Part shown: positions 43,092 to 58,077 of the stretch, in pieces | How positions within the stretch are numbered: the first letter of the stretch is position 1 | How the letters are laid out: the number at the start of each line of letters is the position of its first letter | Assembly (NCBI GenBank): GCA_964642855.1 | Contig: CAZXSK010000001.1 | Location: 111,637-175,636 of the forward strand | Length of the DNA: 64,000 nucleotides | Source: an uncultured Planctomycetaceae bacterium | GTDB taxonomy: Bacteria > Planctomycetota > Phycisphaerae > SM23-33 | Direction: 5' to 3' | Translations under genes and position numbers: made by a program | Notes under the pieces: generated by a model | Told to the model about the DNA's origin: nothing | The model's database searches: none | What the model saw: only the letters and a program-made list of their open reading frames with translations

Positions 43092-44156
43092 TCAGGAGGC
43101 CTTCTTCGCCTTCAGCCTCATGCGCTTGGCGTACCCCAACTGCTTCATGATGTTGTCATAGATCACGTTGCTTTCCTGGGGAAACGGGTCCTCCTTGACG
43201 CCGATCATCATGTCCCGAAGCTCCTGAAGTACGCCGATCGCCTCGTTCCACTGTCTGCTTTCCATGGCAATAAAGGCGGCCTTGTACATGTTCCACAGGT
43301 CGGTCTTGAGCTTGTCCTTCGCCCGGGTGAATTGGCGGTCGTCCTCGACCTCTGCGAAGGCCGTTCCCGAGTGTGCCAGATGGAGCTTGTAGAACTTCAC
43401 CGCCCGGTAGAGATTGCCCGCCCGATCGCGTTCCCGGTACATCCGCCGGGCCTGCTCGAGCATCTTCTCGGCCGCCAGCCGGTCCTTCGGGATCTGCGCC
43501 TTGGTACGAAGAGGCCCTTCGATCGTCGTATTGACATCCATCTGCGTCAGCCGGTCCGGCCGATTGGACTGCTCCACTTCTTCCGCACTGGGACGAAGCA
43601 GAATCACGGCGAGCAGGACCACCAGCCCCACGCCGTAGAGCACGCCAAAGAGAACGTACTTGCGGGTCTTGTTTTCGCTGGACTCCTCAGCGTCCTGCTT
43701 GCGGTCTTCCCGCGTCTGCTTCGGCTGGGGCTCGGGCGGTTCTGCGTCTTCCTCCAGGACCTCGGAGGGCACTTCGTCGGGCTCGGGGACCAGGGGCTCT
43801 TTCTGGATGCTCACCCCCGCCTCGGCCATCGCCTGCCTCGGGTCATCGCCCGGCGCGACGAAGAACATCTGGGTATCGTTGCCCACGGCCAGGATGTCGC
43901 CCGTATCCAGCAGGATCTTCTTGCCCGACTTGTAGCGTTTGCCGTTGATCCGCGTCCCGTGTGAGGAGAGGTTCTCGACAATCCAGCCTTCGCGGGTGAG
44001 CTCGAACTGAAGCTGCTTTCGCGAGACTGATTCCTCCTCAAGCTGGATCTGCGCTTCAGGCGAGCGGCCCGCGATCGTGAGGCGATCGGTCACGAGCGCA
44101 TGCTCCCCAGCCTGGGGACCAGAAAGAAATACAAGTTCCGGCAGTGGCGAACTCAT
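43092..44156 (-). CDS. FHA-domain membrane protein (Tad-locus associated)
   Basis: Start MSSPLPELVF. FHA core LTIAGRSPEAQIQLEEESVSRKQLQFELTREGWIVENLSSHGTRINGKRY...GDILAVGN. An acidic linker and a transmembrane helix (YVLFGVLYGVGLVVLLAVILL) are followed by a C-terminal alpha-helical domain. Its ATG overlaps the tadC stop (TGATG). Confidence 0.8.
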   Translation of the reverse strand: MSSPLPELVFLSGPQAGEHALVTDRLTIAGRSPEAQIQLEEESVSRKQLQFELTREGWIVENLSSHGTRINGKRYKSGKKILLDTGDILAVGNDTQMFFVAPGDDPRQAMAEAGVSIQKEPLVPEPDEVPSEVLEEDAEPPEPQPKQTREDRKQDAEESSENKTRKYVLFGVLYGVGLVVLLAVILLRPSAEEVEQSNRPDRLTQMDVNTTIEGPLRTKAQIPKDRLAAEKMLEQARRMYRERDRAGNLYRAVKFYKLHLAHSGTAFAEVEDDRQFTRAKDKLKTDLWNMYKAAFIAMESRQWNEAIGVLQELRDMMIGVKEDPFPQESNVIYDNIMKQLGYAKRMRLKAKKAS

Positions 44157-45139
44157 CAGAACAGTCCCTCGTTGACCGCCCGGATAATCATCGGGCCGAA
44201 AATCGCGAGAATCACAGCCATCAGCAGCAGGAGGCAGGGCAGGAGAATCCGAACGCTGGCAACGGCGGCGCGGTCTTCCGCGCGGACCGACCGCTGCAGC
44301 CTGAGCAACGAGGCCTGGTCGTGTAGCACGTCGCCCAGGGGTGTGCCCAACTGTTCGGCCTGGATGACACTGGCAATGATGCTCCGCAGCGACTCGAGAG
44401 GGATCCGGTCTGCCATGTTCTGCAGCGCCCGCTGGCGCGTGGTGCCCAAGTCCATCTCGGCGAGCATGGTCCGCAGTTCGACGTTCAGCGGATCGTCGGA
44501 CGCTTCTGCAACGATGGTCTGGGCGGCTTCGGCGAACGTTGCCCCCGCCCCCATCGCCAAGGCGATCAGGTCCAGGGCGTACGGTACACGGCGCGAGATG
44601 ATCATCAGGCGCTCCTGGGCCTTGGAGTACAACTGGTAAATCATCAGGAAGAACCCGGCCAGGAAGGCTACGAACACCAGGATGAAGCTGAACCGCCCCA
44701 GCACGAGCAGGTGGAAGGCCTCCAGCAGCGCCGCGGCGCCGATACCGGCGAGGATGGCGATCGCGAGGTATTCTTCCGGCGTGTAGTAGTTCGGGCTGCC
44801 CGCTGCGACGATGGTCCGCCGCAGCCATCGCTTGACACGCGGTATTGACAGGCGGTACCCCATCGCAAGCAGAAACCACATCAAAGGCCGGGTGGCAGGA
44901 TGTTCGAACACCGTCTCGCGGTCGGCGTGTCCGGTTGCGATCGCCGCTGCCCGCTGGGGCGAGAGTTTGGGCGTGCCCGTCTGCGAGAACATCGCGATCA
45001 CGAACATGGAGATCGACAGGCCGAACATCGACGACAGCATGCCCTGCAGGAAATAGCCCGACCACAGCGCGATCAGCAGCCCCAGCAGTACCCATCCGGG
45101 CAGAAACCCCAACAGGATGATCAAATTGGTTCGCTTCAT
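44156..45139 (-). CDS. tadC: Flp pilus assembly protein TadC (T2SS-F domain)
   Basis: Polytopic membrane protein with GspF/T2SSF-like cytoplasmic loop (PLESLRSIIASVIQAEQLGTPLGDVL). Confidence 0.85.
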   Translation of the reverse strand: MKRTNLIILLGFLPGWVLLGLLIALWSGYFLQGMLSSMFGLSISMFVIAMFSQTGTPKLSPQRAAAIATGHADRETVFEHPATRPLMWFLLAMGYRLSIPRVKRWLRRTIVAAGSPNYYTPEEYLAIAILAGIGAAALLEAFHLLVLGRFSFILVFVAFLAGFFLMIYQLYSKAQERLMIISRRVPYALDLIALAMGAGATFAEAAQTIVAEASDDPLNVELRTMLAEMDLGTTRQRALQNMADRIPLESLRSIIASVIQAEQLGTPLGDVLHDQASLLRLQRSVRAEDRAAVASVRILLPCLLLLMAVILAIFGPMIIRAVNEGLF

Positions 45140-45164
45140 ATTGGTGCGTTTGCTCGGCAGATGA

Positions 45165-46031
45165 TCATATGTCGATCTGTACGGTCTTGCGTATCCACAG
45201 GAACCCCGCGACGTTCAGCGCGATGATCGCAGCGATCACGACCTTTCCGAAGTCGTCGGTAAAAAGTGATCGAACGCCGGAGGAATCCACCAGGAAGTAG
45301 ATGATCGCCAGCACGGCAATAGGCATCGCACCCATCCACCGCGCGGTTGCCCTTCCCTGCGCGGTCAGGGCGTGGACGCGCTTCTCCAGTCGCTGAATCT
45401 CCCGGATACTTTCGGCGATCCGGTCGAGCGTCTCGCCCAGGTCGCCACCGCGCTCACGGTGTGTGTGCAACGCCGAGAACAGCAGCCGAAAGTCGCCCGA
45501 ATCGATACGATCGGCCGCCTTGAGCATCGCCTGGTCCAGCGGCACGCCGTATTCGTACTCCCGAATAAGGTGGGCAAACTCCTGGCGGATCGGAGCGGGT
45601 GCATCGCGAGCGACCATCTGCATAGACTGCACGAGGTTCAGCCCGGCCCGAACACCCGAAGCCAGCGTCTGTACCGCCGGCACGAGCTGGTCCTCAAGCT
45701 TCCGCCTGCGGCGACGCTGAAGGTACTTCAGAATCGACGAGGGAAGCAGCAGACCCGCTGCAAAGAACACCAACCCTCCCCAAAGGCTGGCCGTGGCTAT
45801 GTATCCGAAGATCGCCGCCACCAGAATGGCCATCCCGCAGAAGACCAGCACGAGGCGCGACGGGATGTCCAGTAGGAGCTGACCCCGAAGAACGCGGTCG
45901 AACTTGCGATCCTCCCTGGCGATGAAGTACAGCACGGGCCGCAGGCCGACGCCTACCGCCCCGCCGACAAGCACAAACAACATCACCGAAACCAGCAGGC
46001 TTGGCGTGACAGCCAGGATCGAGGCGATCAT
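45165..46031 (-). CDS. tadB: Flp pilus assembly protein TadB (T2SS-F domain)
   Basis: T2SSF-domain motifs (VQTLASGVRAGLNLVQSMQMVARDAPAPIRQEFAHLIREYEYGVPLDQAM). 4-nt overlap with the upstream ATPase gene. Confidence 0.85.
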   Translation of the reverse strand: MIASILAVTPSLLVSVMLFVLVGGAVGVGLRPVLYFIAREDRKFDRVLRGQLLLDIPSRLVLVFCGMAILVAAIFGYIATASLWGGLVFFAAGLLLPSSILKYLQRRRRRKLEDQLVPAVQTLASGVRAGLNLVQSMQMVARDAPAPIRQEFAHLIREYEYGVPLDQAMLKAADRIDSGDFRLLFSALHTHRERGGDLGETLDRIAESIREIQRLEKRVHALTAQGRATARWMGAMPIAVLAIIYFLVDSSGVRSLFTDDFGKVVIAAIIALNVAGFLWIRKTVQIDI

Positions 46032-47905
46032 GTGAACACCTCGATACCCAGCAGTTCGTCCTCGATCAGCTCCTCGGCGAAGTAGGGGATGTACCCGGTA
46101 TGGCGCAACTCGCCAAAGCGTCCGCGTTCTCCGGGGATCGGACGGGTCACGAAGATGTCCTCGGTGATGATGCGCGTGGTTTCCGGATCCAGGCCGACGA
46201 TCTCCGAAATGTGCGTAATCCGCCGCGAGCCGTCCTGCAGGCGGGCGATCTGCACCACCAGGTCCAGGGCGGCCGTGATCTGTTCGCGGATCGCGCGAAC
46301 GGGCATTTCTACGGCCATCATGACCATGGTCTCCAGCCGAAGGAGCGTGTCGGCGGGGTTGTTCGCGTGGATCGTCGACAGCGACCCGTCGTGGCCGGTG
46401 TTCATCGCCTGGAGCATGTCCAGCGCCTCGGGGCCTCTTACCTCGCCGACGATCAGGCGGTCGGGCCGCATACGCAGGGCATTGCGCACCAGGTCGCGAA
46501 TGGTGTATGCGCCCCGGCCCTCGATGTTCGCGGGTCGGGTTTCCAGCCGCACCAGGTGCTCCTGCTGAAGCTGGAGTTCGGCGGAGTCTTCGATCGTGAC
46601 GATCCGCTCCTCGGGAGGGATGAAATTACTCAGGACGTTCAGCGTTGTGGTCTTTCCGCTGCCCGTTCCGCCGGAGATCATGATGTTCTTCCTGCCCACC
46701 ACGCACGCCTTGAGGAACTGGGCCGACGACGCCGTCAGCGTGCTTCGCTCGACGAGGTCGTCGATCGTGAACGGGATTCTCGCGAATTTTCGGATCGTCA
46801 GGGTGGGTCCGGAGAGACTCAGCGGGTTGATTACGGCATTGACGCGCGAGCCATCCGGTAGCCGGGCATCCACCAGCGGCGTGGATCGGTCGATCCGCCG
46901 ACCGATCGGCGTGATGATCCGCTCGATGACGCTCTCGACGATTTCGTCGGAGAAGAAGCTGCGGCCGGTGTTCTGGAGCACGCCGTCTTTCTCGATGTAG
47001 ATTCGGTCGCGACCGACAACCATGATCTCGTTGACGTTGGGCATCTCCAGCAGGTCCTGCAAAGGCCCGTAGCCCAGCACGACGTCTTCGATCTCTTTCG
47101 AGAGCATGCGGCGGGCGATGTAGGATCGCAGTTCGGGCGTCAGACGAGGCGTGATCTTCGCCAGCTGGGAGTCCCACTCGCTCTCGACGGTGGCGACGTC
47201 GTCCTTCAAAGTGTGCGGACGGAGCCGCAACGGGAAGAACCCCACCACGTCGCCAATGATCCGCGAGAGGGCCTCCTCGTGCTTGGAATCCATCAGGTCG
47301 GTATCTTCGAACCCGTAGCTGTACATCAGCTTGCCAGTCGCGCGGCGGGTGATCTCGGTAACCACGCCCCGCCAGAGATACTCCCGCACGAGATGATCGG
47401 CCATTTCGGAGTCGATCTCTTCGAGGTGGTTGCCGATGATCTCCGCAAGATTCCGCTTGATCATCACGACAAGCTGCTCGTCGGCCGATCCCGCCTGGCC
47501 CGTCACCCGCAGGTTCAGCCGTTCGAGCAGTTCGGCGTGCATCTTCTGCTCGAGTTCGATCACGCGTTTGCGCGGGGAGACGGTCCGCTTCTCGCCGCGA
47601 ACCCGGCGGGCGGAGGGCTCCATCATGTACACGCTGTACTCGCCGAGGCGGACCTCATCGCCGAAGCTGATTTTCACCCGCTGCTTGACGGGCACGTCCT
47701 GGTTGGCGACGACCAGGCCATTGAGACCCAGCGATTCGATGAAGAACGTGCCATTCTCCTTGAGGATCCGAGCATGCTGACGCGAAACGAACGGGCTGCG
47801 CAGCGTTACGTCGTTGCTCTCGTCACGACCGATACTGACGTTCTCGTCATCGACCTCGACGACTTCCCGCTGGTCGGTGTACTGGTTGTAGACCCAGATC
47901 TCCAC
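46028..47905 (-). CDS. cpaF: CpaF/TadA secretion ATPase with N-terminal FHA domain
   Basis: N-terminus [49 protein letters not shown]...GDEVRLG is an FHA domain. Central and C-terminal regions carry Walker A ([15 protein letters not shown]), an Asp box, Walker B ([15 protein letters not shown]) and a His box ([12 protein letters not shown]). Confidence 0.9.
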
Positions 47906-47961: not shown

Positions 47962-48756
47962 TTACCACCCCGAATCCGAACCACCCGATGCGCCGGACCT
48001 GGCAGGGAGGTTCCGCAGATCCGGGTTGACCCGGCCCGCATCGCGCCGGCGTGAGACCATGTTCGGATGCAGAACGCCGACCGTCAGCGAACCGTCCACC
48101 CAGGTCTTGACATTCTTGAATTGCTCGAACACCTCGGGCTCCAGCAGGACCTGAACCGTCCGGTACCGGCTGGGACTGTCGTCTCCTCCCCGCGATGCCC
48201 ACGAACGGCGCGTGTCGCTCGACTGGCCTTCGATACCTTCCACCTTGACTGCCGAAAGAATACGGTATGTCTTGCGCTGGCCTCGGGGAGGATCAACGAT
48301 CCCGTACACGTCGACGTAATCGCCCTTCTTGAGCAGTTGCCCCGGCGACGTGCGGGGATCGAACTCGATGGTGAACGCAGATTTGCTTTCGTCGCTCCAC
48401 TTCTCCGATCCGCCCACCTGCCCGAGGTCGGTGTGGAGGATGTACTCGCCCTTCTTGATCTGCCGGCTGGGACGGGTACCCAGCACGATCTCGGCGTTCT
48501 CCCGCTTGACGACCTTTCCGATCGAGTCCATCAGGTCTCTCGGAATACTCACCTCGCTGAGATGGTCGCTGGTGATCTCTTCGCCGGCTTCGATATTTCT
48601 GCTGGCGCGAATGACTTCTACCAGATCGCCCTTGCCTTCTTCACGAACCGCGCGAATGTGGAGGTTGTAGACCAGTGCCGCAGCCATGCCCAACGCCACC
48701 GACACGACCACCAGAACCACATTGCTCACGCCCTGACCGCTGGATTCTTCTGCCAT
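47962..48756 (-). CDS. cpaB: Flp pilus assembly protein CpaB/RcpC
   Basis: N-terminal transmembrane anchor followed by a SAF domain (VIRASRNIEAGEEITSDHLSEVSIP). Size and architecture fit CpaB. Confidence 0.75.
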   Translation of the reverse strand: MAEESSGQGVSNVVLVVVSVALGMAAALVYNLHIRAVREEGKGDLVEVIRASRNIEAGEEITSDHLSEVSIPRDLMDSIGKVVKRENAEIVLGTRPSRQIKKGEYILHTDLGQVGGSEKWSDESKSAFTIEFDPRTSPGQLLKKGDYVDVYGIVDPPRGQRKTYRILSAVKVEGIEGQSSDTRRSWASRGGDDSPSRYRTVQVLLEPEVFEQFKNVKTWVDGSLTVGVLHPNMVSRRRDAGRVNPDLRNLPARSGASGGSDSGW

Positions 48757-48769: not shown

Positions 48770-49339
48770 TTACGAACCCGCCGACGAATCGGTCGGCCGG
48801 GCGATTACCAGTATTTCGACAATATTGCCCGTTGCAGACTGTTTTCGCAAGACCAGCTCGATGAATGCTCCGGGTTTTTGCAGAATCAGCCCCGGGGAGT
48901 CCTCCTCGCCCCGGCGTGAGAGCACTCGCCATCCGCGCTGCCTGGCGGTGCTGTCGTACCACGCGATCGCTTCTTCCTGGCCCGTGGAGCCTTGGTATTT
49001 CATCACGGTCAAACCGCCGGGCATCCGCCAGGCTTCGCTACGATCCATGCCCGACGGCGGAGGCAGGAGGTCCTCCGACTCCGGAATCGCGATCACCCCG
49101 GCAGCGGCAGCCGGATTGCTGAGGAAAGAGGCAAAATTCCCGTCCGCTGCGGGCTGGGGCACTTCTGCACTTCCCCGCGACTTGGAACCGTGGTCGGACT
49201 CCTGGTCCTTGCGGACGAGAAAGACGTGGATCTGCCAGGCGGCAAACACACCGGCCGCCAGGAGAAGAACGTACAACAGCAACCGGCCCGTAAGCCTGGG
49301 CCGGCCTCGCTTGCGAGGATGTTCTGCACGGAAGCCCAT
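48770..49339 (-). CDS. hypothetical membrane-anchored protein in Tad locus
   Basis: RLLLYVLLLAAGVFAAWQIHVF is a single transmembrane helix. No known motifs. Tightly packed between tadE and cpaB. Confidence 0.5.
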   Translation of the reverse strand: MGFRAEHPRKRGRPRLTGRLLLYVLLLAAGVFAAWQIHVFLVRKDQESDHGSKSRGSAEVPQPAADGNFASFLSNPAAAAGVIAIPESEDLLPPPSGMDRSEAWRMPGGLTVMKYQGSTGQEEAIAWYDSTARQRGWRVLSRRGEEDSPGLILQKPGAFIELVLRKQSATGNIVEILVIARPTDSSAGS

Positions 49340-49356: not shown

Positions 49357-49953
49357 CTACCAGCCGTGACGGTAGAGATTTCGGACGGTCTGGGCAAGCT
49401 CCTCCCCCGGAGCGCTTACGTTCTCGAGGGCTTCATCGAGATCTTCGAGGAACAACTCCACCACTGCCGAACTGGGCGAACACTGACCCCGCTTCCAGGA
49501 CACCCCGTCGCGCAGATGCTCCCGCTGGATCGCTCCGGTGAACGACTGCCACGCCCCGACGTCCGAAGGGAACTCTGCCGAGACATATCCTCTCCAGCCC
49601 TTAGGGAACCTTCGCAGCACGCTCTCTTCGGCGTACTCTCCGGCCTCCCGCGAGACCTGGTCGGCTCCGTCAACGAGGTACTCCAGGGTGTCCAGGGGTC
49701 CCCTGCCGCCATGGATGGCCACGCCTTCAGCCCGGTCGCCAAAGAACCGCTGATTCAGTCCGTTGGGCTCGTCGTTTTGCATTCCGTTCCAGGCTGTATA
49801 GCGGGCGGATATCCGCACGTGCTGCTGGTCCATCATCGCCTTGCCGAAGAAAAACGTCAGCCCGATCACCAGCGCCAGGAGGGGCACGACCATGACGAAC
49901 TCGATCATCGCCGCTCCGCGTCGTCTGCAGGATTGTCTCGGTTTCAGTCTCAT
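49357..49953 (-). CDS. TadE-like pseudopilin
   Basis: RRRGAAMIEFVMVVPLLALVIGLTFFFG matches the TadE/TadG N-terminal motif. Start MRLKPRQ is internal to track ORF 49357..49977. Confidence 0.75.
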   Translation of the reverse strand: MRLKPRQSCRRRGAAMIEFVMVVPLLALVIGLTFFFGKAMMDQQHVRISARYTAWNGMQNDEPNGLNQRFFGDRAEGVAIHGGRGPLDTLEYLVDGADQVSREAGEYAEESVLRRFPKGWRGYVSAEFPSDVGAWQSFTGAIQREHLRDGVSWKRGQCSPSSAVVELFLEDLDEALENVSAPGEELAQTVRNLYRHGW

Positions 49954-50001
49954 GTCATTAGTGAAACCCGCCTGCACAAAGCGGGTATCGCCGGCCTGCG
50001 G

Positions 50002-52071
50002 TCAGTGATTCAGGTGTGTCTCCGCGAGATCTTCCGGGATGATTTCCAGGTATTCCAGAGCTTCCTGGACGTCGCCCGGAGACAGGAAATAGGCGGGTGT
50101 GTCGCCAAGCCCGGCTTCCATCCTCTGCATCCAGTCGTCCCACTTGCTTACCGGTGTAAGCGCGACTTCCCAATCCTGGGTCCACAGATCCCAACTGGAA
50201 TGATTGAACAGCTTCGCCTGCGAGACCGCAGTGATCGTCTCTGAAGGGTTGGCGTTCTTGAACTTCTGGGACCACACCGCGCTGCGGTCATGGGTGCGGG
50301 CAACAGCCAGGAAGCTGAAATATCTTCGCCGCCAGCCTTCATCCGGATCCCGGCTGTAGGGGTTGTAGTCACCTTCCGACGTGTCGATCATGATCGGATA
50401 CGGCAGGTCGGAGTCCGTGTCATAATTGCAGGGGTTGCGAACCTCGACCATCGGCCCGATGTCGACCCCGGCAAAAACCCAGAAAGCCGTCATGTACACC
50501 TTCTGCCAGATCGCCTCCTTGGTATCCTCGTCGATGATCAGCGATATGCCGATTTCCTCGTCGACGGTAGTTTCGTACCAGTAGTCATCCCGCCAGATGT
50601 GATCGGCTACCTTCGGCACGGACCACTTGTCCGGATCCTGCCAGCCACCGGCCCACACCGCGATCGGCCGCTCGCCGTTGGTCCGGTACGTGCCGTCCTC
50701 CAGCCAGCGGGAATCGGTCGGAGGATACTTCGACGCGACCTCCACCAGGTAGAACATGGTCTGGTGAACCTTGTTCGGGTCCTGCTGGGCGACGGTACGG
50801 GCCTTGGGATAAGGCCAGACCCACTGGGGGTAATGATACTCCTTCTCCTGCATGCCGGGCTTGAACATGTACTCCAGCTTGATGTTCGCCAGATCGTGAC
50901 AGAAGCGATAGAACTGCGTGTCGTTGAGGGCTCCCTCGTGATGCCGATACCACCTTGGCCCGTCCCACTGCCAGTGATCGTTGGCGTACCAGTCGATCCG
51001 CTCGAATGCCCAACGATACGGGCCGAACGTGTGATAGCCAATCGTCTTCCAGTCGCTCGGTGCCCACCGGCCTGCTGTTCCACCGTCGCTGTTGCCGCGT
51101 GCCGAGCCCCCTACACGCCGGCCTCCGACATTGACATTCCCCCCCCCGCCGCGCGTCTTGCCCACGCCCGGCGTTCCGGGCACCCACTGCCACGCAGTCG
51201 CCTGGCGAATGTAGTGCCTCCACCGATGCAGCCTCGCGTACGGGCCCAGACGGTGAGGATACTTCATATCGGGAATCGCCCCGCCCCTGCCGCCTTGTTC
51301 GGACACCGTAGCCGAGCCGTCGACGACTCGTTCACTGCCCACCAGGACCGGCCGGAAATCGGGGAACTCACCCCGCCTCGCCGGGATCACCGGAAGCAGT
51401 GGCGCGATGAAGGCTACGTCGGCGTGGCTTTCCTTTCCGAACTGGACGGCGTTGGCCTGGGCGAGGATGCCAGCCGATTCGCCCGTAGCCTCGGACACCT
51501 CGCCCAACGTGACCGCCGCCCGCCAGAGCATGCCCGACGGGGCACTGCCTCCCCGGTGCCAGTACGTGTACTCCGTCATGTCAAAGCCGCTGTGGTTGAT
51601 CGCCTCGTCGAAGGCGATCAGGATGTCCCTCTGGGTGGCCATGCGCTCCCGGAGCGAGGAAAGCCCTTCCTCCAGCAGGTCGCCGCCGCCGTTCATTGGC
51701 GGGATGCTGCGCTGGAGCTGGTACTCAAGCATCTTCTCCCACTCGGTGGTTTCCTTGCGGGACATCTCGGTGCCCAACGGCAGGGCATCCATGACGGGCA
51801 CCAGCGCGATGAGCTTCGCCTGCCCCGTATTGTTCATCGCGACCATGTTCATCGACCGCGCCATCCAATTGGCCCCGCTGATGGCGGCGGAATCCGCGGC
51901 GTTCTGCATCTCCAGCCTGCGGTTGACCTGGTCGCCGAGGTTGTAGACGAAGAAGATCAGCCCGACCAGAACCGTCATGCCGATCAGCGTGACAACCAGC
52001 ACCTGTCCGCGGCGCCGGCGACCCGTGCCCGTCGGACGAATGCGTTTCGTTCTGGCCAGTCTCATTCCCAT
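50002..52071 (-). CDS. TadG-like large Tad pilus-associated protein (Trp-rich)
   Basis: RRRRGQVLVVTLIGMTVLVGLIFFVYNLG (Tad N-terminal motif, PF13400-like). 689 aa, followed by a long Trp/Tyr-rich extracellular region. Confidence 0.7.
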   Translation of the reverse strand: MGMRLARTKRIRPTGTGRRRRGQVLVVTLIGMTVLVGLIFFVYNLGDQVNRRLEMQNAADSAAISGANWMARSMNMVAMNNTGQAKLIALVPVMDALPLGTEMSRKETTEWEKMLEYQLQRSIPPMNGGGDLLEEGLSSLRERMATQRDILIAFDEAINHSGFDMTEYTYWHRGGSAPSGMLWRAAVTLGEVSEATGESAGILAQANAVQFGKESHADVAFIAPLLPVIPARRGEFPDFRPVLVGSERVVDGSATVSEQGGRGGAIPDMKYPHRLGPYARLHRWRHYIRQATAWQWVPGTPGVGKTRGGGGNVNVGGRRVGGSARGNSDGGTAGRWAPSDWKTIGYHTFGPYRWAFERIDWYANDHWQWDGPRWYRHHEGALNDTQFYRFCHDLANIKLEYMFKPGMQEKEYHYPQWVWPYPKARTVAQQDPNKVHQTMFYLVEVASKYPPTDSRWLEDGTYRTNGERPIAVWAGGWQDPDKWSVPKVADHIWRDDYWYETTVDEEIGISLIIDEDTKEAIWQKVYMTAFWVFAGVDIGPMVEVRNPCNYDTDSDLPYPIMIDTSEGDYNPYSRDPDEGWRRRYFSFLAVARTHDRSAVWSQKFKNANPSETITAVSQAKLFNHSSWDLWTQDWEVALTPVSKWDDWMQRMEAGLGDTPAYFLSPGDVQEALEYLEIIPEDLAETHLNH

Positions 52072-52091: not shown

Positions 52092-54842
52092 TCAGGAGCC
52101 CTGATCGGCCTGCTCGGCCTTTTCCAGCAGATCCTGGACCTCGGGGGTATTCTTCATGCTTTTGGCGATCACGAAATACGCCTTGGCGCTCTTGGCTTCA
52201 CCTTCGGCCAGTGCCTCCTTGCCCAGCCGGATGTTCATGCCGTATTTGGCGTCGCGAATCCCATCGGCTACTGCTGCAGGAGGCGTGGGGTACACCTCGC
52301 CGGCGTTCTCGAACAGGTTGATGGCCTTCTTGAAATCCTCCGCCTCCAGGGCAGCCCGGGCGGCGGTCATGCGCTTCTCGAACTCCACCTTCCGGGCCAT
52401 CGCTTCCTGCAGAGATTCCACGCGCAGCTTCTCGGAAGGTTTGATGCCAATGGCCTTCTCGTAGGCCGATGCGGCCTTGGCGTATTCACCTTCGTCCCGC
52501 AGCTGATTGGCCTTGTCCAACTGGATCTCGAACTGGCAGGTGATGATCTTCGCATCCAGCTCGGCGCCCTGGCGGATCTTCCGGGCGTCCATGAACTTCT
52601 CCAACGCCTCGTCCCAGTCCCGTGCGACCATCGCGGCGTCCCCAGCTGCCACCAGCGAGCTGTATTCGGCGTTCTCCTGCAACTCATCCAGCGCATCCTT
52701 GGCCTTCTGATTGTCCGGATTGACCTGCAATGCCCGAACGAACAGTCGCTCGGCTTCCTTGGTCTCACCGTCGACCAGGGCCTTGTTGGCGACGCTTACG
52801 TAGTAGTCGGACTCTACAGTCTTGATCCGCTCGGCCAGTTGTGGCGAGGAACGGATCTCCGAAGCGGCTTTGAGATTCTTCAACTCCTCGGCCAGGTTTC
52901 CACGCTTGGCTGCGCGCTCTGCAGCGGTCATCGCCTCGGCATATTCCCTGCTGCCCTGCATGCTTTCCTTGCGCATCGAGGCCATCTCGCGAAGGTTCTC
53001 GATACGGTCTTCTCCCAGGAGTCGTTCGTTCCTGGGATCATCGAGTTTCTCTACCAGTTCCCCGTAGACCTCTGCTGCAGCTGCGTAGTCCTGCTGCTCG
53101 GCCAGTTCGTCCCCACGTGCCAACATGGTCGAGAGCTGATTCTCCAGTTCGGCCTTGTCGACCTTCTCGATGAAATCGTAGTAGCGCGTCTCAAACATCT
53201 TCTGACCGGCGTCCAGTCGGCCGTATCGATCCCGCAGGACGTCTCGGGCCTGTTTGAATTCCTTGCTATCCAGGTGCTGCTGGGCTTCCTCCAAAGCCGT
53301 CAGGAAGTCCCTGCTGTTCTGGTAGTAGCTGGAGAGATTCTCGATCTCGGTTTCAACGATTCCACTGGCCCAGTCGGCCAGAGGCTGGTCGTATTTTGTC
53401 TGCACGAGGATCGCCTTGCGTTTGGCTTCGTCGCGGGCGGTAGCGGCGGCCTTCCAGTCCTGACTATCCACCGCGACGCGGCCCCTGGCGACTTCCAGGA
53501 GCACCGACGCCTTGGCGTATTCCAGCGTGTCCCGGTACTTCTCACGGATCGCTTCAAACTCCGGGATGGACTCCGCGAATTTCCGTTCGTCGAAGAGCTT
53601 CTTCGCTTCGGCGTAGGACGACTGGACCTGCTCCTGGTAGGCCTTCTTCTGGAAGTGCTTCTGCAGACCCAGCGTGATGCCCACCCCGAGGATCCCCAGC
53701 ACCACGACCGCAGCGAGCACAATTTTTGTCCGTGTCGAAAAGCTCGTTTTGGGCACCGGGGCAGTCGGCGCGGCGTCATCGACCGAGTCGCTGCTGCCTT
53801 CCTTCTTACCCGGCAGTGAAGCCCCTTCCAGTGCGCCACCGAGGCTGGTGTCGTCCAGTTGGACCTGCGCCCCTCCCGCTGCCCGCCGGCCCGCTTGACC
53901 GGCCTTTCTCGCCGATCGCCCGCGCGATCCGCCTGCCGCCTTGCGGGCCTTGGGCGAGAAACCCAGCTTGATCGCGCGGCCGAGTTCTTCCATCCCCGCG
54001 TACCGGTCCCGCGGGTCCTTGGCAATCATCTTCATCACGATGTGAGAGAGTTCCGACGGCACCTGCGGATTGATCTCGACCGGGGGCGGGGCTTTCACAC
54101 CCGGGTTACCATGCCATTTCATCCACCGGAGGTGTTCGCTGTGCTTGTCGCGCGTGATGTCGGCGAAGACCTCATTGAATTTGTCCCGCCCGAGCAAAAG
54201 CTCGTACATGATGAAGCCCAGCGAATACATGTCCGCACGCCCGTCGACTGGCTCGTCGCTTTCTCCGTACAGCTCCGGGGCCATGTACTTGGTGGTCCCA
54301 AGGACCATGGAAGTCTGTCCACTGCTGCCGGCCGCTACGCCGAAATCGGCGATCTTCGGATGCAGCCCTTCGGTGACGATGATATTGGCGGGTTTGATGT
54401 CCCGGTGGATGATTCCCGCCGCGTGGACGTCGTGCAAAGCGGCCGCCAGTCGCCAGAGAATCTGGAGCACCGCCTTCGGCTCGGTCGGGCCAGGATTGTC
54501 GGCAAGCACCCTCTCCAGGCTCGGGCCCTTGACGTATTCCATGACGATGAACAGCCCCTGCTCCTCCTGGAGAAGCTCGTGGATCGTCACCACGGCAGGC
54601 TGTTCCTGTCCGAGACGGGCCAGGATCTGGGCTTCCTTTCGGAACCGTTCGAGAAACTCTTCGTCGGCGGCAAGATGGGTCGACACCTGCTTGATCGCCA
54701 CGTCGCGATCGAGAAGCGGGTCGTGACAGCGATAGATGACCGCCTGCCCGCCGATCGCAAGGCGTTCGATCACCTCGTACTTGCCGATCCTGGTTCCGGG
54801 CCTGAGCCCGACGTCTTTTCCCTGTCCGTCCTGGTTGGCCAT
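52092..54842 (-). CDS. Ser/Thr protein kinase with transmembrane segment and C-terminal TPR repeats
   Basis: Hanks-type kinase motifs: GGQAVIYRCHD...AIK (subdomain I/II), HRDIKPANII (VIb), DFG (VII), APE (VIII). Transmembrane helix IVLAAVVVLGILGVGITL. Roughly 500 aa of TPR-like repeats. Confidence 0.9.
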   Translation of the reverse strand: MANQDGQGKDVGLRPGTRIGKYEVIERLAIGGQAVIYRCHDPLLDRDVAIKQVSTHLAADEEFLERFRKEAQILARLGQEQPAVVTIHELLQEEQGLFIVMEYVKGPSLERVLADNPGPTEPKAVLQILWRLAAALHDVHAAGIIHRDIKPANIIVTEGLHPKIADFGVAAGSSGQTSMVLGTTKYMAPELYGESDEPVDGRADMYSLGFIMYELLLGRDKFNEVFADITRDKHSEHLRWMKWHGNPGVKAPPPVEINPQVPSELSHIVMKMIAKDPRDRYAGMEELGRAIKLGFSPKARKAAGGSRGRSARKAGQAGRRAAGGAQVQLDDTSLGGALEGASLPGKKEGSSDSVDDAAPTAPVPKTSFSTRTKIVLAAVVVLGILGVGITLGLQKHFQKKAYQEQVQSSYAEAKKLFDERKFAESIPEFEAIREKYRDTLEYAKASVLLEVARGRVAVDSQDWKAAATARDEAKRKAILVQTKYDQPLADWASGIVETEIENLSSYYQNSRDFLTALEEAQQHLDSKEFKQARDVLRDRYGRLDAGQKMFETRYYDFIEKVDKAELENQLSTMLARGDELAEQQDYAAAAEVYGELVEKLDDPRNERLLGEDRIENLREMASMRKESMQGSREYAEAMTAAERAAKRGNLAEELKNLKAASEIRSSPQLAERIKTVESDYYVSVANKALVDGETKEAERLFVRALQVNPDNQKAKDALDELQENAEYSSLVAAGDAAMVARDWDEALEKFMDARKIRQGAELDAKIITCQFEIQLDKANQLRDEGEYAKAASAYEKAIGIKPSEKLRVESLQEAMARKVEFEKRMTAARAALEAEDFKKAINLFENAGEVYPTPPAAVADGIRDAKYGMNIRLGKEALAEGEAKSAKAYFVIAKSMKNTPEVQDLLEKAEQADQGS

Positions 54843-54901: not shown

Positions 54902-55855
54902 TCAGTCCACGGTATCGAACCGTTCCACGTCGACGTAATCCTGCGCGCCCTCGTTCTTCATGAAACACGTGGCACGGATCTCCATACCATATTCTCCGTC
55001 GCCGAAGCTCAGCTCCGCCCCGTCGTCGTCCAGCGTAGCAAACAGCCAGGCTCCGTAAGGCACGGAAAGGTACAGCGTGTGATCCACTGTCACCTTGATC
55101 TCTTCGTCAGCCCGGTACCTCTCGTTGTCCGCCGGCGGATTGATCTCGACCGAGGTATAGTCGTCCGCGTAGCCGATCTTCCGGGCGATGCGCCCGTCAA
55201 CCCATCCTGGCGTATCCAAGCCCTGGCTCTGGAAGAAATCGGCGAGACCGTCCGTCAGGCCACGATCGTCCGCCGAGGCCAGCGACCGATTTCCGCAGGC
55301 AACCGGGAGAAGCGCATAGACGGCTGCCCGCTTGACGCGCAGATGCTTGAGCGAGCCGGCCGGAGGGTCCAGCCGGTTGGCGCCCTCGCCGCCGCGGCCG
55401 CTGAAGTCTGCCGGAATCTGAACAACCGCCGATCTGCAGGCGCAGTAGGCGGCGTAGTGCACGCAGAGATTGCCCCCCATCAGCATCGATGACTGCACCA
55501 TGACCAGCACGATCATCAGCATGATCGGCAGAACAAGAGCGAATTCGACAATCGCGGCGCCTCCCTGCCCGTCGCGAGGCTTGCGACGCTGCCTTGCACC
55601 CGACCGCCACAGGAGGACCATCAGCCCTGAGAGACCGGCCGAGCCGACAACGACCACCACGAGGCATCGCAGGAACAACGGCGAAGTAACCGCCGAGACA
55701 ATCCACGAGGAGTTCCATCTGCCACGAAGCGCAGGCCAGGCTACCGCGGCTACCAAGGCAAGAGAACCGGCCAGCGTGACAAGCCAAGCCTTCAGCGCAT
55801 CACGAAAGCCCGGGCCCGTTGCCTCGCAGCCGGGATGTACGTCGGATCGATCCAT
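54902..55855 (-). CDS. TadE/TadG-like pseudopilin
   Basis: GGAAIVEFALVLPIMLMIVLVMVQ matches the TadE motif. Start MDRSDV chosen to abut cpaA (6-nt gap) rather than the track's upstream start. Confidence 0.7.
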   Translation of the reverse strand: MDRSDVHPGCEATGPGFRDALKAWLVTLAGSLALVAAVAWPALRGRWNSSWIVSAVTSPLFLRCLVVVVVGSAGLSGLMVLLWRSGARQRRKPRDGQGGAAIVEFALVLPIMLMIVLVMVQSSMLMGGNLCVHYAAYCACRSAVVQIPADFSGRGGEGANRLDPPAGSLKHLRVKRAAVYALLPVACGNRSLASADDRGLTDGLADFFQSQGLDTPGWVDGRIARKIGYADDYTSVEINPPADNERYRADEEIKVTVDHTLYLSVPYGAWLFATLDDDGAELSFGDGEYGMEIRATCFMKNEGAQDYVDVERFDTVD

Positions 55856-55860
55856 TTCGG

Positions 55861-56439
55861 TCAGATCCCGAAGGGCCAGCGTGCCGCCGCCGGGCCGCGA
55901 ATCAGCGTTTCCACGATCGCCAATGCCGTCCCGATGCAAAGCGCAAGTCCGAAAGGCACCTTCGGGCTGTCTTTCGTTGCAGGATCAGGCGGCCGGCCTG
56001 GCGTCATGCACAGATACAGGAAACGAACGATGCGTCCCATCGTCTCCTTCAGTACGTGACGCTGAAGCATGACGGCAACCGCCATCAGCGCCGCTACGGC
56101 GAAACCATAGAACATTGCGGCCAGTGTCAGACGCCAACCCGCAAGGGCGCCCACTGCGCCCATCAGTTTCGCGTCGCCGCCGTTGATCCCGCCTGCAAAC
56201 CAGGCAACCAGCATGGGGATGAACCCCACACCGAACCCCGCCAGCGCGCCAACAAAGCCCAGCCGATCTTCCCCGCCGGTGAGACCGCCAACCAGCGTAT
56301 GGCCGATCAGCCCGATGGCGATGGCTGGGTACGTCAGGTAGTTGTAGATCTTACCGCTGCGGACGTCGGTGACCGAAGCGGCTATCAGAACCGCAGCCAG
56401 TACCACCAGCGCCCACGCGTATGTCCACACGGGCGGCAT
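55861..56439 (-). CDS. cpaA: prepilin peptidase CpaA/TadV (A24 family)
   Basis: Polytopic membrane protein with GGINGGDAKLMGAVGALAGW (A24 peptidase active-site Asp region). Confidence 0.85.
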   Translation of the reverse strand: MPPVWTYAWALVVLAAVLIAASVTDVRSGKIYNYLTYPAIAIGLIGHTLVGGLTGGEDRLGFVGALAGFGVGFIPMLVAWFAGGINGGDAKLMGAVGALAGWRLTLAAMFYGFAVAALMAVAVMLQRHVLKETMGRIVRFLYLCMTPGRPPDPATKDSPKVPFGLALCIGTALAIVETLIRGPAAARWPFGI

Positions 56440-56492
56440 GGGACTATTGTACCAGAAGACCCATGCCGCCCGCGAGCGCTACTCGAGGGTTC

Positions 56493-56708
56493 TCAGATTT
56501 CATCCGGCGACATTCCCTCGCGTCCCTTGGCCTTGTCCCAAAGCTCGCCAGCCCACTGGGAAATGTCCTTCCAGAACCAGATGATCACAGCCAGCAGAGG
56601 CAGGGCGATTGCGGCAATCACGAGAATGTACTCGACCATGTCCGCTCCGCCTTCGTCCCGGTGCAGCGCCCGCAGCATGCTTCTGACCTTGTTTACCATC
56701 GTATTCAT
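56493..56708 (-). CDS. flp: Flp/Fap pilin
   Basis: HRDEGG^ADMVEYILVIAAIALPLLAVIIWF is the Flp motif (G/xxxxEY followed by a hydrophobic stretch). 71 aa. Confidence 0.8.
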   Translation of the reverse strand: MNTMVNKVRSMLRALHRDEGGADMVEYILVIAAIALPLLAVIIWFWKDISQWAGELWDKAKGREGMSPDEI

Positions 56709-56763
56709 GAGTTCTTCCTCGGATCAGATCCGTACTTCGCCTTCGGCCGTTCCTGCTGATCCG

Positions 56764-56949
56764 TCAGGGAAACGGCAGCGTCTCCAGAAAACTAACCATG
56801 GCGTAATGCGTCACCAGGACATCCAGCAGAATCGCGAGCACCGCGATCATCGGAATCCCAAAGGCCACCAGAAGCAGTGTCCACTCGACCGTCTGCTGGC
56901 CGCCCTGGTCCCGGTGAAACCTTCGAACTCTCTGCATCCACGGTGCCAT
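56764..56949 (-). CDS. flp: Flp/Fap pilin (second paralog)
   Basis: HRDQGG^QQTVEWTLLLVAFGIPMIAVLAILL is Flp-like. 61 aa. Confidence 0.75.
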   Translation of the reverse strand: MAPWMQRVRRFHRDQGGQQTVEWTLLLVAFGIPMIAVLAILLDVLVTHYAMVSFLETLPFP

Positions 56950-56955
56950 CTCGCC

Positions 56956-58077
56956 TCAGTCCTCACTATCGGAGCCGAAGACCTTTCGAGTTAAGTCCCA
57001 CTTGTCTCGAAGTATACGAATCTTCGGTTCCCGGGCGAACAGCGACTTCTCTCCGGTCCATTGCAGCGAGCCCTCTCCGGGCATGCCCTGGCCGTCATCC
57101 GCCAGTCCGTATACATATACGTCATGGACCCGGTACTTTCCGTCGTCTCCCAGCGGAAGAACCTCAGAAATCTGCGTCAGACCCCGCCTGCCATCCGTGA
57201 AACGGGTCACCTGCACGATCACATCAATCGCCGAAGCAATCTGGGCCCGAAGCGCGTGGAGGGGCAACTCCACCTTGCTCATCATCGCCAGCGTCTCCAG
57301 GCGGTTCAGCGCATCCATCGGCATGTTGGCGTGCAAGGTCGACATGCTCCCGGCGTGGCCCGAAGTCATCGCCTGGATCATGTCCAGCGCTTCCCCGCCC
57401 CGGACCTCCCCGATAATGATCCGGTCAGGCCGCAACCGAAGCGACGAGCGGAACAGGTCGCGGATATTGACCTCCCCCCTGCCCCACCGATCCGCAGGCC
57501 GGGCCTCCAATGAAATCACGTGCTCCTGCTGGAGCTCCAGTTCCGAAGAATCCTCGATCGTGACGATCCGTTGATGGTGGGGCACGAAGTCACTCAGGAC
57601 GTTCAGCAGCGAGGTCTTGCCGCTGGAAGTCCCACCCGCCACCAGGATATTCTTCTCGGCCTCGACGCAGATCTCGAGATACTCCCGGGTCTCGGGTGTC
57701 CACGAGCCCAGTTCCACCAGGTGATCTGCACTGAACATGACCTTCGAAAACTTGCGGATTGTCATGCACACCCCGGTGCGGCACGGCGGAGAGAGAACCA
57801 CGTGAACCCGGCTGCCATCGGGCAGGCGCGAGTCGATCAGCGGATGCTCGAAGTCCAGCCGCTTGCCGGTGTACTGCAACACATTGTTGACCGCCGAAAG
57901 CAAGGCCTCTTCGTCCTCGAATTTCGCTTCGGTCTGGACCAGCCGGCCTTCTTTCTCGACATAGATCTCATCGGGCCGGTTGATCATGATCTCCGAAACG
58001 GACGGATCTTCCATGAACGGCAGGATGGGCGCGAGGAAGTGTTCGACCGTTGCCTTGAAAATCTGGAGCTTGGCCAT
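56956..58077 (-). CDS. cpaF: CpaF/TadA secretion ATPase (no FHA domain)
   Basis: Walker A (VAGGTSSGKTSLLN), Walker B (RIIIGEVRGGEALDM), His box (GHAGSMSTLHAN). 373 aa. Confidence 0.9.
   Translation of the reverse strand: MAKLQIFKATVEHFLAPILPFMEDPSVSEIMINRPDEIYVEKEGRLVQTEAKFEDEEALLSAVNNVLQYTGKRLDFEHPLIDSRLPDGSRVHVVLSPPCRTGVCMTIRKFSKVMFSADHLVELGSWTPETREYLEICVEAEKNILVAGGTSSGKTSLLNVLSDFVPHHQRIVTIEDSSELELQQEHVISLEARPADRWGRGEVNIRDLFRSSLRLRPDRIIIGEVRGGEALDMIQAMTSGHAGSMSTLHANMPMDALNRLETLAMMSKVELPLHALRAQIASAIDVIVQVTRFTDGRRGLTQISEVLPLGDDGKYRVHDVYVYGLADDGQGMPGEGSLQWTGEKSLFAREPKIRILRDKWDLTRKVFGSDSED

Follow-up and report, generated by a model that had tools for sequence, protein, structure and literature searches.

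Organization of the operon

The locus analyzed here raises the question of how a Tad pilus machine is run when its genes include a Hanks-type Ser/Thr kinase and two FHA-domain proteins, and neither a secretin nor CpaE/TadZ. It occupies positions 43092-58077 of a 64-kb stretch of DNA (hereafter, the window) and comprises 14 genes, all of them, like every feature described below, on the minus strand, in the order CpaF2, two Flp pilins, CpaA, TadE, Hanks kinase (with TM and TPR regions), TadG, TadE, a 189-aa protein, CpaB, FHA-CpaF, TadB, TadC, and the FHA-TM protein. Neighboring genes are spaced from -4 nt (overlap) to 59 nt, which bears out the tight, co-directional packing described in an earlier note on this DNA, and Pfam and NCBIfam domain searches of the products agree with the inventory of Tad genes given there. 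The locus is a single operon encoding a type IVc (Tad-like) filament machine. It belongs to a distinct and conserved subtype, here named FHA-type, whose hallmarks are a motor ATPase with a fused FHA domain, a short additional CpaF paralogue, translational coupling of an FHA-TM protein to tadC, and the lack of TadZ/CpaE.

The 667-aa open reading frame called mechanically at 43092-45095 was split into tadC (44156-45139) and the FHA gene (43092-44156), which are read in different frames and share 1 nt (TGATG), in agreement with the translational coupling proposed earlier. The first TadE-like gene most likely starts at 55855, 5 nt past the cpaA stop codon. A weak terminator-like hairpin of 5 base pairs at the end of the last gene (43084-43098), detected by a consensus scan only, possibly marks the operon end; 21 terminator-like sites were found in the region versus 9.2 expected from shuffles, which makes for weak evidence.

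Components of the pilus machine

The first gene of the operon encodes CpaF2 (373 aa, 56956-58077; T2SSE, 3e-57), a short second ATPase of the TadA/CpaF family without an FHA domain. Its Walker A motif (GGTSSGKT), Asp box, and His box are all intact, and together with its counterparts it forms a paralogue clade of its own, found alongside FHA-CpaF in Planctomycetota, one Myxococcia MAG, and Rhizobium. The FHA-CpaF motor ATPase (46028-47905; T2SSE, 2e-61) has a GTG start codon, a 4-nt overlap with tadB, and an N-terminal FHA domain (6e-15; aa 23-88, nt 47642-47839), with a linker that is short and basic by sequence. At least 120 clusters match it at 73% identity or more.

Two small pilin genes follow cpaF2. 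The 61-aa Flp-type pilin (56764-56949) had no Pfam match, and is recognized by the class-III signal motif G/QQTVEW and a hydrophobic helix at aa 24-42; a gene of 54-61 aa occupies the equivalent slot in loci L001 and L084-L086. The 71-aa Flp pilin (56493-56708) carries the motif G/ADMVEY and matches Flp1_like (1e-4) and Flp_Fap (7e-4), both below the Pfam cut-offs, and its orthologues in L001 and L084 match PF04964. The prepilin peptidase CpaA/TadV (192 aa, 55861-56439; Peptidase_A24, 1e-15) has four hydrophobic segments and no methyltransferase domain.

Three pseudopilin-like proteins are encoded on either side of the kinase gene. The TadE-like protein of 317 aa (54902-55855; TadE, 1e-7 at aa 99-137; motif G/AAIVEF) has an unusually long leader of about 97 aa with two hydrophobic helices; its TM segments (25-43, 64-82, and 102-120) are laid out in the same way in L011. 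The Trp-rich TadG-like protein (689 aa, 50002-52071; PF13400 Tad, 9.5e-9 at aa 22-67) has an N-terminal TM helix and a gene position conserved among the compared loci, and is likely a tip or minor pilin. The second TadE-like protein (206 aa, 49357-49977; TadE, 5e-7) has the motif G/AAMIEF. Next to it, an inner-membrane anchored, cluster-specific protein of 189 aa (48770-49339) gave no family match in domain searches; this fourteenth gene was left unnamed in the earlier note. The CpaB/RcpC-like periplasmic alignment protein (264 aa, 47962-48756; SAF, 1e-5), with an N-terminal TM helix, matches RcpC (1e-5) and TIGR03177 CpaB (2e-16), both below cut-off, and RcpC is matched by its orthologues in L084 and L085. 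The platform is formed by TadB/CpaG (288 aa, 45165-46031; T2SSF, 6e-21) and TadC/CpaH (327 aa, 44156-45139; T2SSF, 1e-15).

The kinase and the FHA domains

The Hanks-type Ser/Thr kinase (916 aa, 52092-54842; Pkinase, 1.5e-46, with weak TPR matches) consists of a cytoplasmic kinase domain, a single TM helix (aa 374-392), and a helical/TPR domain of about 520 aa predicted to be periplasmic. More than 120 full-length orthologues were found at 36-51% identity. In 28 of them, K51, E70, HRD146-148, N153, DFG166-168, T183/T184, and APE are invariant; the kinase is catalytically intact, and we read it as active. One motif stands out in the otherwise variable linker of the same 28 proteins, about 12 residues ahead of the TM helix: its consensus is T-A-x-[LIV]-P (T360-A-P-V-P here, 53751-53765), with T360 and P364 invariant and only Leu, Ile, or Val at +3. 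FHA domains typically select a hydrophobic residue at pT+3, and the motif looks like a candidate phospho-acceptor and putative FHA docking site. The ORFs scanned in the window yielded no phosphatase of the PP2C type.

In the FHA-TM protein (354 aa, 43092-44156; FHA, 7e-12), the FHA domain (aa 28-92) is cytoplasmic and is followed by a disordered linker that is acidic and rich in Pro, and by a TM helix (aa 168-186); the C-terminal domain is helical and TPR-like, with a predicted periplasmic location. The phosphothreonine-pocket pattern GR...SR(x)H...N is invariant in both FHA-CpaF and FHA-TM, the residues in the former being G26, R27, S41, R42, H44, and N62, and the modelled FHA domain is closest to true pThr readers.

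Conservation across genomes

The operon is conserved across Phycisphaerae. The full 14-gene order is repeated in L001, L003, L084, L085, and L086, and is partly kept in L002, L004-L006, and L008-L010, in all cases with unrelated flanks. This recurrence on unrelated contigs places the operon far beyond chance. The FHA-TM gene is missing after tadC in L006 and in L009, where an OprB porin gene is found instead, and the L008 contig stops short of this position.

Synteny also bears on the suspicion that the kinase and FHA genes were a fortuitous insertion. On Phycisphaerae and Planctomycetota contigs with differing flanks, the kinase, FHA-CpaF, and FHA-TM genes hold the same positions, and their catalytic and pThr-pocket residues are invariant; in every complete type-A locus examined, the kinase gene fills the slot between tadE and tadG. 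The lists of the top 120 homologues of FHA-CpaF and of the kinase have 25 contigs in common. A kinase gene likewise accompanies the module in L014 and in the type-B clusters, which are rearranged; no kinase was present in the stretch retrieved for L019 and L023. The kinase has thus not been inserted by chance, given that independent contigs without common flanks have the genes in one and the same order; both the kinase and the FHA genes are part of the machine.

Secretin and CpaE

Neither a secretin nor a ParA/CpaE gene was found among about 45 ORFs scanned with Pfam across the window. Locally built secretin and CpaE HMMs combined with tblastn found neither gene here; their sensitivity was such that a secretin was detected in 44 and CpaE in about 50 of the 83 comparison loci. 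The reported lack of both genes in the locus was thus sustained after re-annotation, and the accompanying idea that the kinase and FHA proteins sit in their place has to be divided. For TadZ it gains real support, as CpaE occurs in 0 of 15 FHA-CpaF loci versus 44 of 49 loci with CpaF lacking FHA (Fisher p ~1e-10), a pattern in favor of FHA acting instead of TadZ; the counts are not phylogenetically independent, and few separate lineages underlie the anticorrelation. For the secretin it does not hold. In sister clusters of other Planctomycetota, a secretin-TPR pair lies directly upstream of cpaB: L011 and L015 have the order secretin-TPR-CpaB-FHA-CpaF-TadB-TadC-FHA-kinase-CpaF2. L014 has a short secretin along with the same module of kinase, FHA, and two ATPases. 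Because both coexist in related clusters, the kinase/FHA module does not replace the secretin.

CpaB is known to link the platform to the secretin, and in Caulobacter CpaE forms a ring around CpaF (PMC13170226). Since CpaB is retained in the operon, the genes for a secretin and its TPR pilotin most likely lie at another site in the genome, as they do for S. meliloti flp-2 (below).

Comparison with known systems

With the canonical Tad systems of Aggregatibacter and Caulobacter, the operon shares Flp pilins (G/xxxxEY), TadV/CpaA, minor pilins of the TadE/TadF/TadG kind, RcpC/CpaB, TadA/CpaF, and TadB/TadC. Canonical loci further have genes for RcpA/CpaC (the secretin), for a pilotin or lipoproteins, and for TadZ/CpaE, none of which is in this locus, and their CpaE ring surrounds a single bifunctional CpaF, whereas a second ATPase is present here.

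Closer parallels are found elsewhere. The Kil system of Myxococcus xanthus, a Tad-like apparatus for contact-dependent killing (Seef et al. 2021, PMC8460266), also has an FHA-fused ATPase (KilF), further FHA proteins including a PrgH-like one beside a platform gene, TPR-containing partners, Flp and pseudopilins, CpaB, and a prepilin peptidase, and TadZ is unmentioned for it. Kil differs in its unusually short secretin, single ATPase, and two clusters, compared with one operon, two ATPases, and no in-cluster secretin here; moreover, no bona fide Hanks kinase is described for it, only an FHA+TPR protein annotated as 'protein kinase G'-like (MXAN_4648), in contrast to the catalytically intact kinase of the window. 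FHA-fused CpaF orthologues, mostly from Betaproteobacteria, constitute class III of a recent classification (Nat Commun 2025, PMC12019362) and likewise carry the FHA domain N-terminal to the CpaF core. That study describes no kinase, second ATPase, or CpaE loss, and a long disordered region takes the place of the short basic linker. In view of these two precedents, the novelty claimed earlier for this arrangement was overstated.

An uncharacterized Tad-like cluster on Rhizobium plasmids (for example, R. etli CFN42 p42e, RHE_RS24780-24830) has the same component set and order, beginning with a CpaF2-like ATPase, which unlike that of the window is transcribed divergently, and continuing with Flp-CpaA-TadE-Tad-TadE-hypothetical-CpaB-FHA-ATPase-TadB-TadC-FHA protein, and no secretin or CpaE. 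Identity to the window proteins is 38% for FHA-CpaF and 51% for CpaF2, and the FHA-CpaF query was matched over at least 80% of its length in 85 plasmid records. The 12-kb flanks of the FHA-ATPase gene encode no Hanks kinase. The flp-2 cluster of Sinorhizobium meliloti is a functional diderm Tad cluster without a secretin, and a 'locus 3' elsewhere consists of secretin, lipoprotein, and TadD-like TPR genes (PMC10934763); flp-2 differs from the window operon in retaining CpaE and in having neither FHA proteins nor a kinase.

Threonine phosphorylation is established in type VI secretion, where pThr-FHA docking licenses assembly through PpkA/PppA/Fha1 in P. aeruginosa and PpkA-TssL-Fha in Agrobacterium (PMC8460266, PMC11217815). 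What that pathway and the window have in common is a nanomachine cluster whose genes include one for an FHA protein and one for a membrane-bound Hanks kinase in which a domain faces outward. The machine is a different one, a type IV filament here, with FHA fused to the motor ATPase and no PP2C found. The Sulfolobus Arn network (ArnA FHA, ArnB, kinases ArnC/ArnD, PP2A; PMC5300886) acts mainly on archaellum gene expression, and its genes lie outside the assembly operon, unlike those of the window.

Proposed mechanism and alternatives

We lean, with slightly more confidence than doubt, towards an FHA-type Tad machine in which the kinase and FHA domains license the ATPase in the role of TadZ. The kinase would sense an envelope or surface cue through its outer domain and autophosphorylate. 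From sequence we infer that its phosphosites are likely the activation-loop Thr pair and the juxtamembrane T-A-x-[LIV]-P motif, perhaps along with platform components. The FHA domains of CpaF and FHA-TM would bind these phosphothreonines, thereby recruiting or licensing the ATPase hexamer at the TadB/TadC platform and gating the machine, a task that in canonical Tad machines belongs to the CpaE/TadZ ring around CpaF. CpaF2 could supply an opposing (retraction) or alternative motor activity, so that the two ATPases may divide the labor.

It is possible, if doubtful, that the FHA domains are phospho-independent structural modules comparable to the FHA-like cytoplasmic rings of T3SS YscD/PrgH, with an FHA-TM ring holding CpaF at the platform and the kinase being a lineage-specific accessory regulator, not an assembly gate. 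The Pfam family Yop-YscD_cpl also matches both FHA regions, the Kil FHA protein adjoining the platform protein KilH is annotated as PrgH-like, and the Rhizobium, L019, and L023 clusters keep their FHA proteins. As these clusters lack a nearby kinase, FHA proteins can work without a cis-encoded one, possibly phospho-independently. A machine other than an adhesive surface pilus is unlikely: this would be a contact-dependent device of the Kil kind, or a short pseudopilus serving in killing, secretion, or uptake, and a kinase/FHA cascade would fire it upon contact, as in T6SS threonine phosphorylation. The hallmarks held in common with Kil and a sub-threshold match of FHA-TM to the T6SS TagH family point this way, as does the Myxococcia MAG cluster L014 with its short secretin, FHA-CpaF, FHA, CpaF2, and kinase (59% identity to the window CpaF). 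The L014 ATPase, however, sits among ordinary CpaFs outside the window clade in an NJ tree, two Flp pilins, three pseudopilins, and CpaB make up an ordinary pilus toolkit, no predatory lifestyle is known for the Phycisphaerae MAGs carrying the cluster, and sequence alone does not give function.

Still other readings concern the missing secretin and the origin of the kinase gene. The flanks of about 12 type-A loci, like those loci themselves, the Rhizobium cluster, and the scanned ORFs of the window, contain no secretin; the system might then work without one, the filament being periplasmic or crossing the planctomycetal outer membrane via a conduit other than a secretin, and the subtype would be defined by having lost the secretin-TPR pair. 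We think this improbable in view of the retained CpaB, the secretin-TPR pair in sister clusters, the S. meliloti precedent for a trans-encoded secretin-pilotin locus, and the lack of a candidate outer-membrane channel among the operon genes. That the kinase gene is a passenger, landed by chance and controlling something unrelated, is scarcely credible even though Hanks kinases are very abundant in Planctomycetota and kinase-less cluster versions exist. The constant tadE-tadG slot, kept despite kinase identities low enough to exclude near-clonal contigs, and the linkage in type-B and L014 clusters bring this reading close to refutation.

The operon is a variant within the known FHA-type (Kil-like) Tad systems, not a novel class of machine. 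To this common design, the Phycisphaerae version, including that of the window, adds a membrane-spanning Hanks kinase whose gene is placed between pseudopilin genes, and which may, as we favor, license the motor ATPase where canonical Tad machines use TadZ.

Gene content of the operon

Fourteen co-directional genes, all on the minus strand of the window (43092-58077) and spaced from a 4-nt overlap to 59 nt, constitute the operon, which we regard as a discrete unit because it is flanked by a sulfatase gene and a divergent PQQ/HEAT-repeat gene. Gene identities were derived from profile searches of the products (Pfam and TIGR profiles). The first gene encodes CpaF2, a CpaF-type ATPase of 373 aa without an FHA domain (T2SSE 3e-57), and is followed by genes for a Flp-like pilin (61 aa, motif G/QQTVEW, no Pfam match), a Flp pilin (71 aa, motif G/ADMVEY, sub-threshold Flp matches), the TadV-type peptidase CpaA, which lacks the methylase domain (192 aa, Peptidase_A24 1e-15), a TadE protein (317 aa, 54902-55855 (-)), and a Hanks kinase with one transmembrane helix and a TPR-containing tail (916 aa, Pkinase 1.5e-46). 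Then come a TadG-like protein (689 aa, Tad PF13400), another TadE protein (206 aa), a 189-aa protein of no family, a CpaB-like protein (SAF; RcpC and TIGR03177 below threshold), the FHA-CpaF motor ATPase (625 aa, T2SSE 2e-61, FHA 6e-15), TadB (PF00482, T2SSF, 6e-21), TadC (44156-45139 (-), PF00482, T2SSF, 1e-15), and finally FHA-TM, a membrane protein with an FHA domain (354 aa, 43092-44156 (-), FHA 7e-12). The match of a TadA/CpaF-family ATPase of the operon to the TadA family TIGR03819 (7e-97) is under the cut-off of that profile. The searches bear out the inventory of the earlier note, a Tad machine with a kinase and two FHA proteins: the expected Tad components present are two TadA/CpaF ATPases, TadB with TadC, short Flp pilins, a TadV-type peptidase, two TadE proteins, one Tad (PF13400) protein, and an RcpC/CpaB-type protein.

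Two gene models required correction. The 667-aa ORF predicted mechanically at 43092-45095 is spurious, a product of the high G+C content; the true genes are tadC, in another frame, and the FHA-TM gene, which overlap by one base (TGATG). The start of the first TadE-like gene is most likely 55855, five bases past the cpaA stop. Ahead of its cleavage motif G/AAIVEF, this pseudopilin carries a leader of some 97 aa that includes two hydrophobic helices, usual class-III leaders being far shorter; the long leader is conserved, since the homologue in L011, a Phycisphaeraceae MAG (18915-20123 (-)), has its TadE motif at aa 90-132. For the 189-aa protein, identities as a PilO/GspM-like protein or a pilotin were rejected; its fold is nearest to PA1624 and DcrB and, further down the ranking, to PsbP and Mog1, from which no function follows. 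A tRNA-Ser(CGA) gene (58285-58370 (+)) occupies part of the 503 bp that separate cpaF2 from the divergent PQQ/HEAT gene; a spurious long ORF (58104-59684 (-)) crosses it, and the sole sigma-70-like match of the region (58233-58261 (+)) is just upstream of this tRNA. Elsewhere in the window, two big adjacent ORFs of 668 and 520 aa (22038-24044 (+) and 24008-25570 (+)) have coding-like GC3 and zero Pfam matches.

Conservation of the kinase and FHA genes

The gene order from CpaF2 to FHA-TM is repeated in five contigs (L001, a 509-kb JGI contig, L003, L084, L085, and L086), three of which (L001, L003, and L084) are truncated at an end of the fetched stretch, and one of which (L084) has additional genes between the kinase gene and cpaB; partial stretches of the same order occur on shorter contigs. 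Since the order is kept in all five contigs amid different and unrelated flanks, the kinase and FHA genes are taken to be part of the Tad machine. The best 120 clusters of FHA-CpaF matches all have at least 73% identity and equal length, and those matches that bear source names are labelled as Phycisphaerae or Planctomycetota MAGs. For the kinase, over 120 full-length orthologues were retrieved, with identities of only 36-51%, and 25 contigs, matched by size, are common to the best-120 lists of the two proteins. Planctomycetota-type FHA-CpaF (53-54% identity) was also observed on two contigs labelled 'uncultured Anaerolineales' (L007 and L008, the latter also with the kinase), a label that reflects either mis-binning or lateral transfer.

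Examination of 28 kinase orthologues revealed that the catalytic Lys, Glu, HRD, Asn, DFG, and APE elements, together with a Thr-Thr pair in the activation loop, are invariant; as judged from these residues, the kinase is a working enzyme under purifying selection and no decaying passenger. In the otherwise variable linker that joins the kinase domain to the TM helix, about 12 residues ahead of the membrane, the Thr and Pro of the motif T360-A-x-[LIV]-P364 are also invariant. Because many FHA domains select a hydrophobic residue at pT+3, we propose this motif as a candidate FHA docking site. The phosphothreonine pocket is invariant both in FHA-CpaF (G26, R27, S41, R42, H44, and N62) and in FHA-TM (G30, R31, S45, R46, and N71). 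The sequences contain two elements of a threonine phosphorylation-type pathway, an in-cluster membrane Hanks kinase with all catalytic motifs and an FHA partner with an intact pocket; the cognate PP2C phosphatase is missing from the cluster, with no PP2C or SpoIIE match among the scanned ORFs of the window or the genes tabulated for L001 and L084-L086.

FHA domains and the absence of TadZ/CpaE

No match to CbiA, AAA_31, or ParA was detected among the approximately 45 ORFs of the 64-kb window scanned with Pfam, nor any to Secretin or PP2C. As a positive control, tblastn searches and locally built HMMs were run with the secretins and CpaE proteins of ordinary Tad loci; of the 83 comparison sequences, 44 gave a secretin and about 50 a true CpaE, whereas the window gave neither. 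The CpaE sequences were gathered as positional ORFs, since a Walker-motif filter found none, the TadZ motif being deviant; and since the first local CpaE HMM cross-matched CpaF ATPases, true CpaE was called at a threshold of 190 bits. On the window this HMM yields cross-matches to CpaF only, at no more than 50 bits, and the scanned ORFs include no ParA-like ATPase of the TadZ/CpaE type. The reported lack of both secretin and CpaE/TadZ in the locus therefore withstands re-annotation, Pfam, tblastn, and the local HMMs.

The absence of CpaE is correlated with the FHA domain on the motor. Among the FHA-CpaF loci with enough upstream sequence none of 15 has CpaE, whereas 44 of 49 non-FHA CpaF loci do (Fisher p ~1e-10, the counts not being phylogenetically independent). 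These FHA-CpaF loci span Planctomycetota, one Myxococcia MAG, Rhizobium, and unclassified MAGs. In Caulobacter, a ring of CpaE dimers encircles the CpaF hexamer (PMC13170226), and it is plausible that an FHA-based tether is a functional replacement for this ring; the suggestion that FHA proteins stand in place of TadZ gains support from the above counts. A weak ParA-like match in the relative L009 was rejected as TadZ, as it belongs to a generic ParA+CBM48 protein 6 kb past the cluster; in L009 the tadC gene is followed by genes for an OprB-family porin (13954-15378), a HAMP-PAS-GGDEF-HD-GYP protein (16718-19327), and the ParA-like ATPase fused to CBM48 (20033-21484). In two Acidobacteriota loci (L064 and L076) the CpaF lacks an FHA domain, the 10 kb upstream contain neither CpaE nor secretin, and a Hanks-kinase match lies 8-10 kb downstream; these may be further kinase-linked, TadZ-less Tad variants.

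A cluster of the same order (Flp, CpaA, TadE, Tad, TadE, hypothetical protein, CpaB, FHA-ATPase, TadB, TadC, FHA protein) is located on plasmid p42e of R. etli CFN42 (L083). A 450-aa CpaF2-like ORF (4348-5700 (-)), 51% identical to CpaF2 of the window and divergent from the Flp operon, falls in a stretch without a listed gene in the PLSDB table; a 554-aa ORF without a Pfam match lies downstream of the cluster (17739-19403 (+)). No secretin, CpaE, or Hanks kinase was found in the p42e cluster. Because the Rhizobium version has no kinase, the FHA-type, two-ATPase, TadZ-less cluster is older and wider than its link to the kinase, and it is the embedded kinase that sets Planctomycetota and the Myxococcia MAG apart. 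In a distance-based neighbor-joining tree (midpoint-rooted, without support values), all CpaF2 proteins form one clade apart from every other CpaF. This conserved second motor is in contrast to model Tad systems, which possess a single bifunctional CpaF (PMC12019362). A Thermoguttaceae MAG (L026, 3933-7580) has two CpaF-family genes in tandem, a form with a long N-terminus that groups with the FHA-type clade and a member of the CpaF2 clade, and a kinase match about 9 kb downstream.

The secretin question

Neither the locus nor the scanned ORFs of the 64-kb window encode the secretin RcpA/CpaC. When one genome per GTDB species was scanned, FHA-containing CpaF relatives emerged outside the close group, including L011, L015 (a Planctomycetota MAG, complete chromosome), and L014 (a Myxococcia MAG). 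In L011 and L015 the order is secretin (PF00263, 1e-37 and 2e-32, respectively), TPR protein, CpaB, FHA-CpaF, TadB, TadC, FHA protein, and kinase. L015 then continues with CpaF2; for L011 a second ATPase was not detected in the cluster, and TadG, TadE, and CpaA are on the opposite strand immediately past the kinase. The order in L014 is a short secretin of 263 aa, FHA-CpaF, TadB, TadC, FHA protein, CpaF2, and kinase. As these three clusters hold both, the kinase/FHA/two-ATPase module coexists with a secretin, which is at odds with the earlier view that the module sits in its place.

The arrangement of the window ('type A') lacks the secretin-TPR pair that stands upstream of cpaB in L011 and L015 ('type B'). 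In Caulobacter, CpaB links the platform to the secretin (PMC13170226), and the flp-2 system of S. meliloti is functional without a secretin of its own, a secretin-lipoprotein-TadD-like locus being situated elsewhere (PMC10934763). Given the retention of CpaB and the flp-2 precedent, the most economical reading of the window-type cluster would be a secretin-pilotin locus elsewhere in the genome. Scanning metagenomes with an alignment of two secretins gave no matches; a hand-made degenerate secretin pattern (RPxQVLLEAT...) yielded two secretin loci, both of which end directly past the match. A much bolder reading is that Phycisphaerae have a self-contained two-motor Tad machine, switched by a dedicated envelope-sensing kinase via pThr-FHA docking, in which the TadZ ring is wholly replaced and the filament crosses, or deliberately does not cross, the planctomycetal outer membrane without a secretin. 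If true, the type IV filament machine would be one whose phospho-switch is eukaryote-like and whose exit route involves no secretin; we consider this combination quite improbable.

Possible mechanism and relation to known systems

For the operon we infer a mechanism in which the kinase would sense some cue via its outer TPR domain and either autophosphorylate, possibly at T360, or phosphorylate parts of the platform. CpaF and the FHA-TM adaptor would then dock onto the pThr sites by way of their FHA domains, which would engage the motor at TadB/TadC, CpaF2 perhaps driving the opposite step. Against this mechanism are the lack of a phosphatase gene nearby, the existence of kinase-less relatives of the cluster, and the lack of an FHA-TM gene after tadC in two loci (L006 and L009), an OprB porin gene occupying that place in L009.

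The nearest working analogies are the threonine phosphorylation pathway of T6SS and the FHA cascade postulated for the Kil system. The operon shares with Kil-like systems an FHA domain fused to the motor ATPase and extra FHA proteins, but has no secretin and two ATPases, whereas Kil, a system for killing prey on contact, has a short secretin lacking N0 and a single ATPase. The 263-aa secretin of the Myxococcia MAG (L014, 1022-1813), encoded directly upstream of FHA-CpaF, resembles the short N0-less KilC of Myxococcus. Our literature searches turned up neither a Tad operon with an integral Hanks kinase nor any account of this Planctomycetota cluster. The building blocks, however, are already known, namely FHA-CpaF, described as 'class III' (PMC12019362), the FHA-rich Kil system, the scattered Tad genes of Bdellovibrio that lie close to FHA and TPR regulators, and secretin-less clusters with a secretin in trans.

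In the usual picture of Tad pili, a single bifunctional ATPase provides the drive and a TadZ/CpaE ring sets its position. Together with related clusters from Planctomycetota, one Myxococcia MAG, and plasmids of Rhizobium, the locus defines a widespread TadZ-less subtype, in which both the motor and a membrane adaptor bear FHA domains and a second ATPase paralogue is conserved. Detection models in which secretin and TadZ are mandatory for Tad are expected to miss this subtype. In the Phycisphaerae version, a predicted-active Hanks kinase, marked by an invariant Thr motif next to the membrane helix, is wired into the operon. This provides a concrete, testable model of how a type IV filament could be gated post-translationally, in analogy with the threonine phosphorylation pathway of T6SS, and it directs attention to the upstream signalling postulated, but not identified, by the authors of the Kil system.
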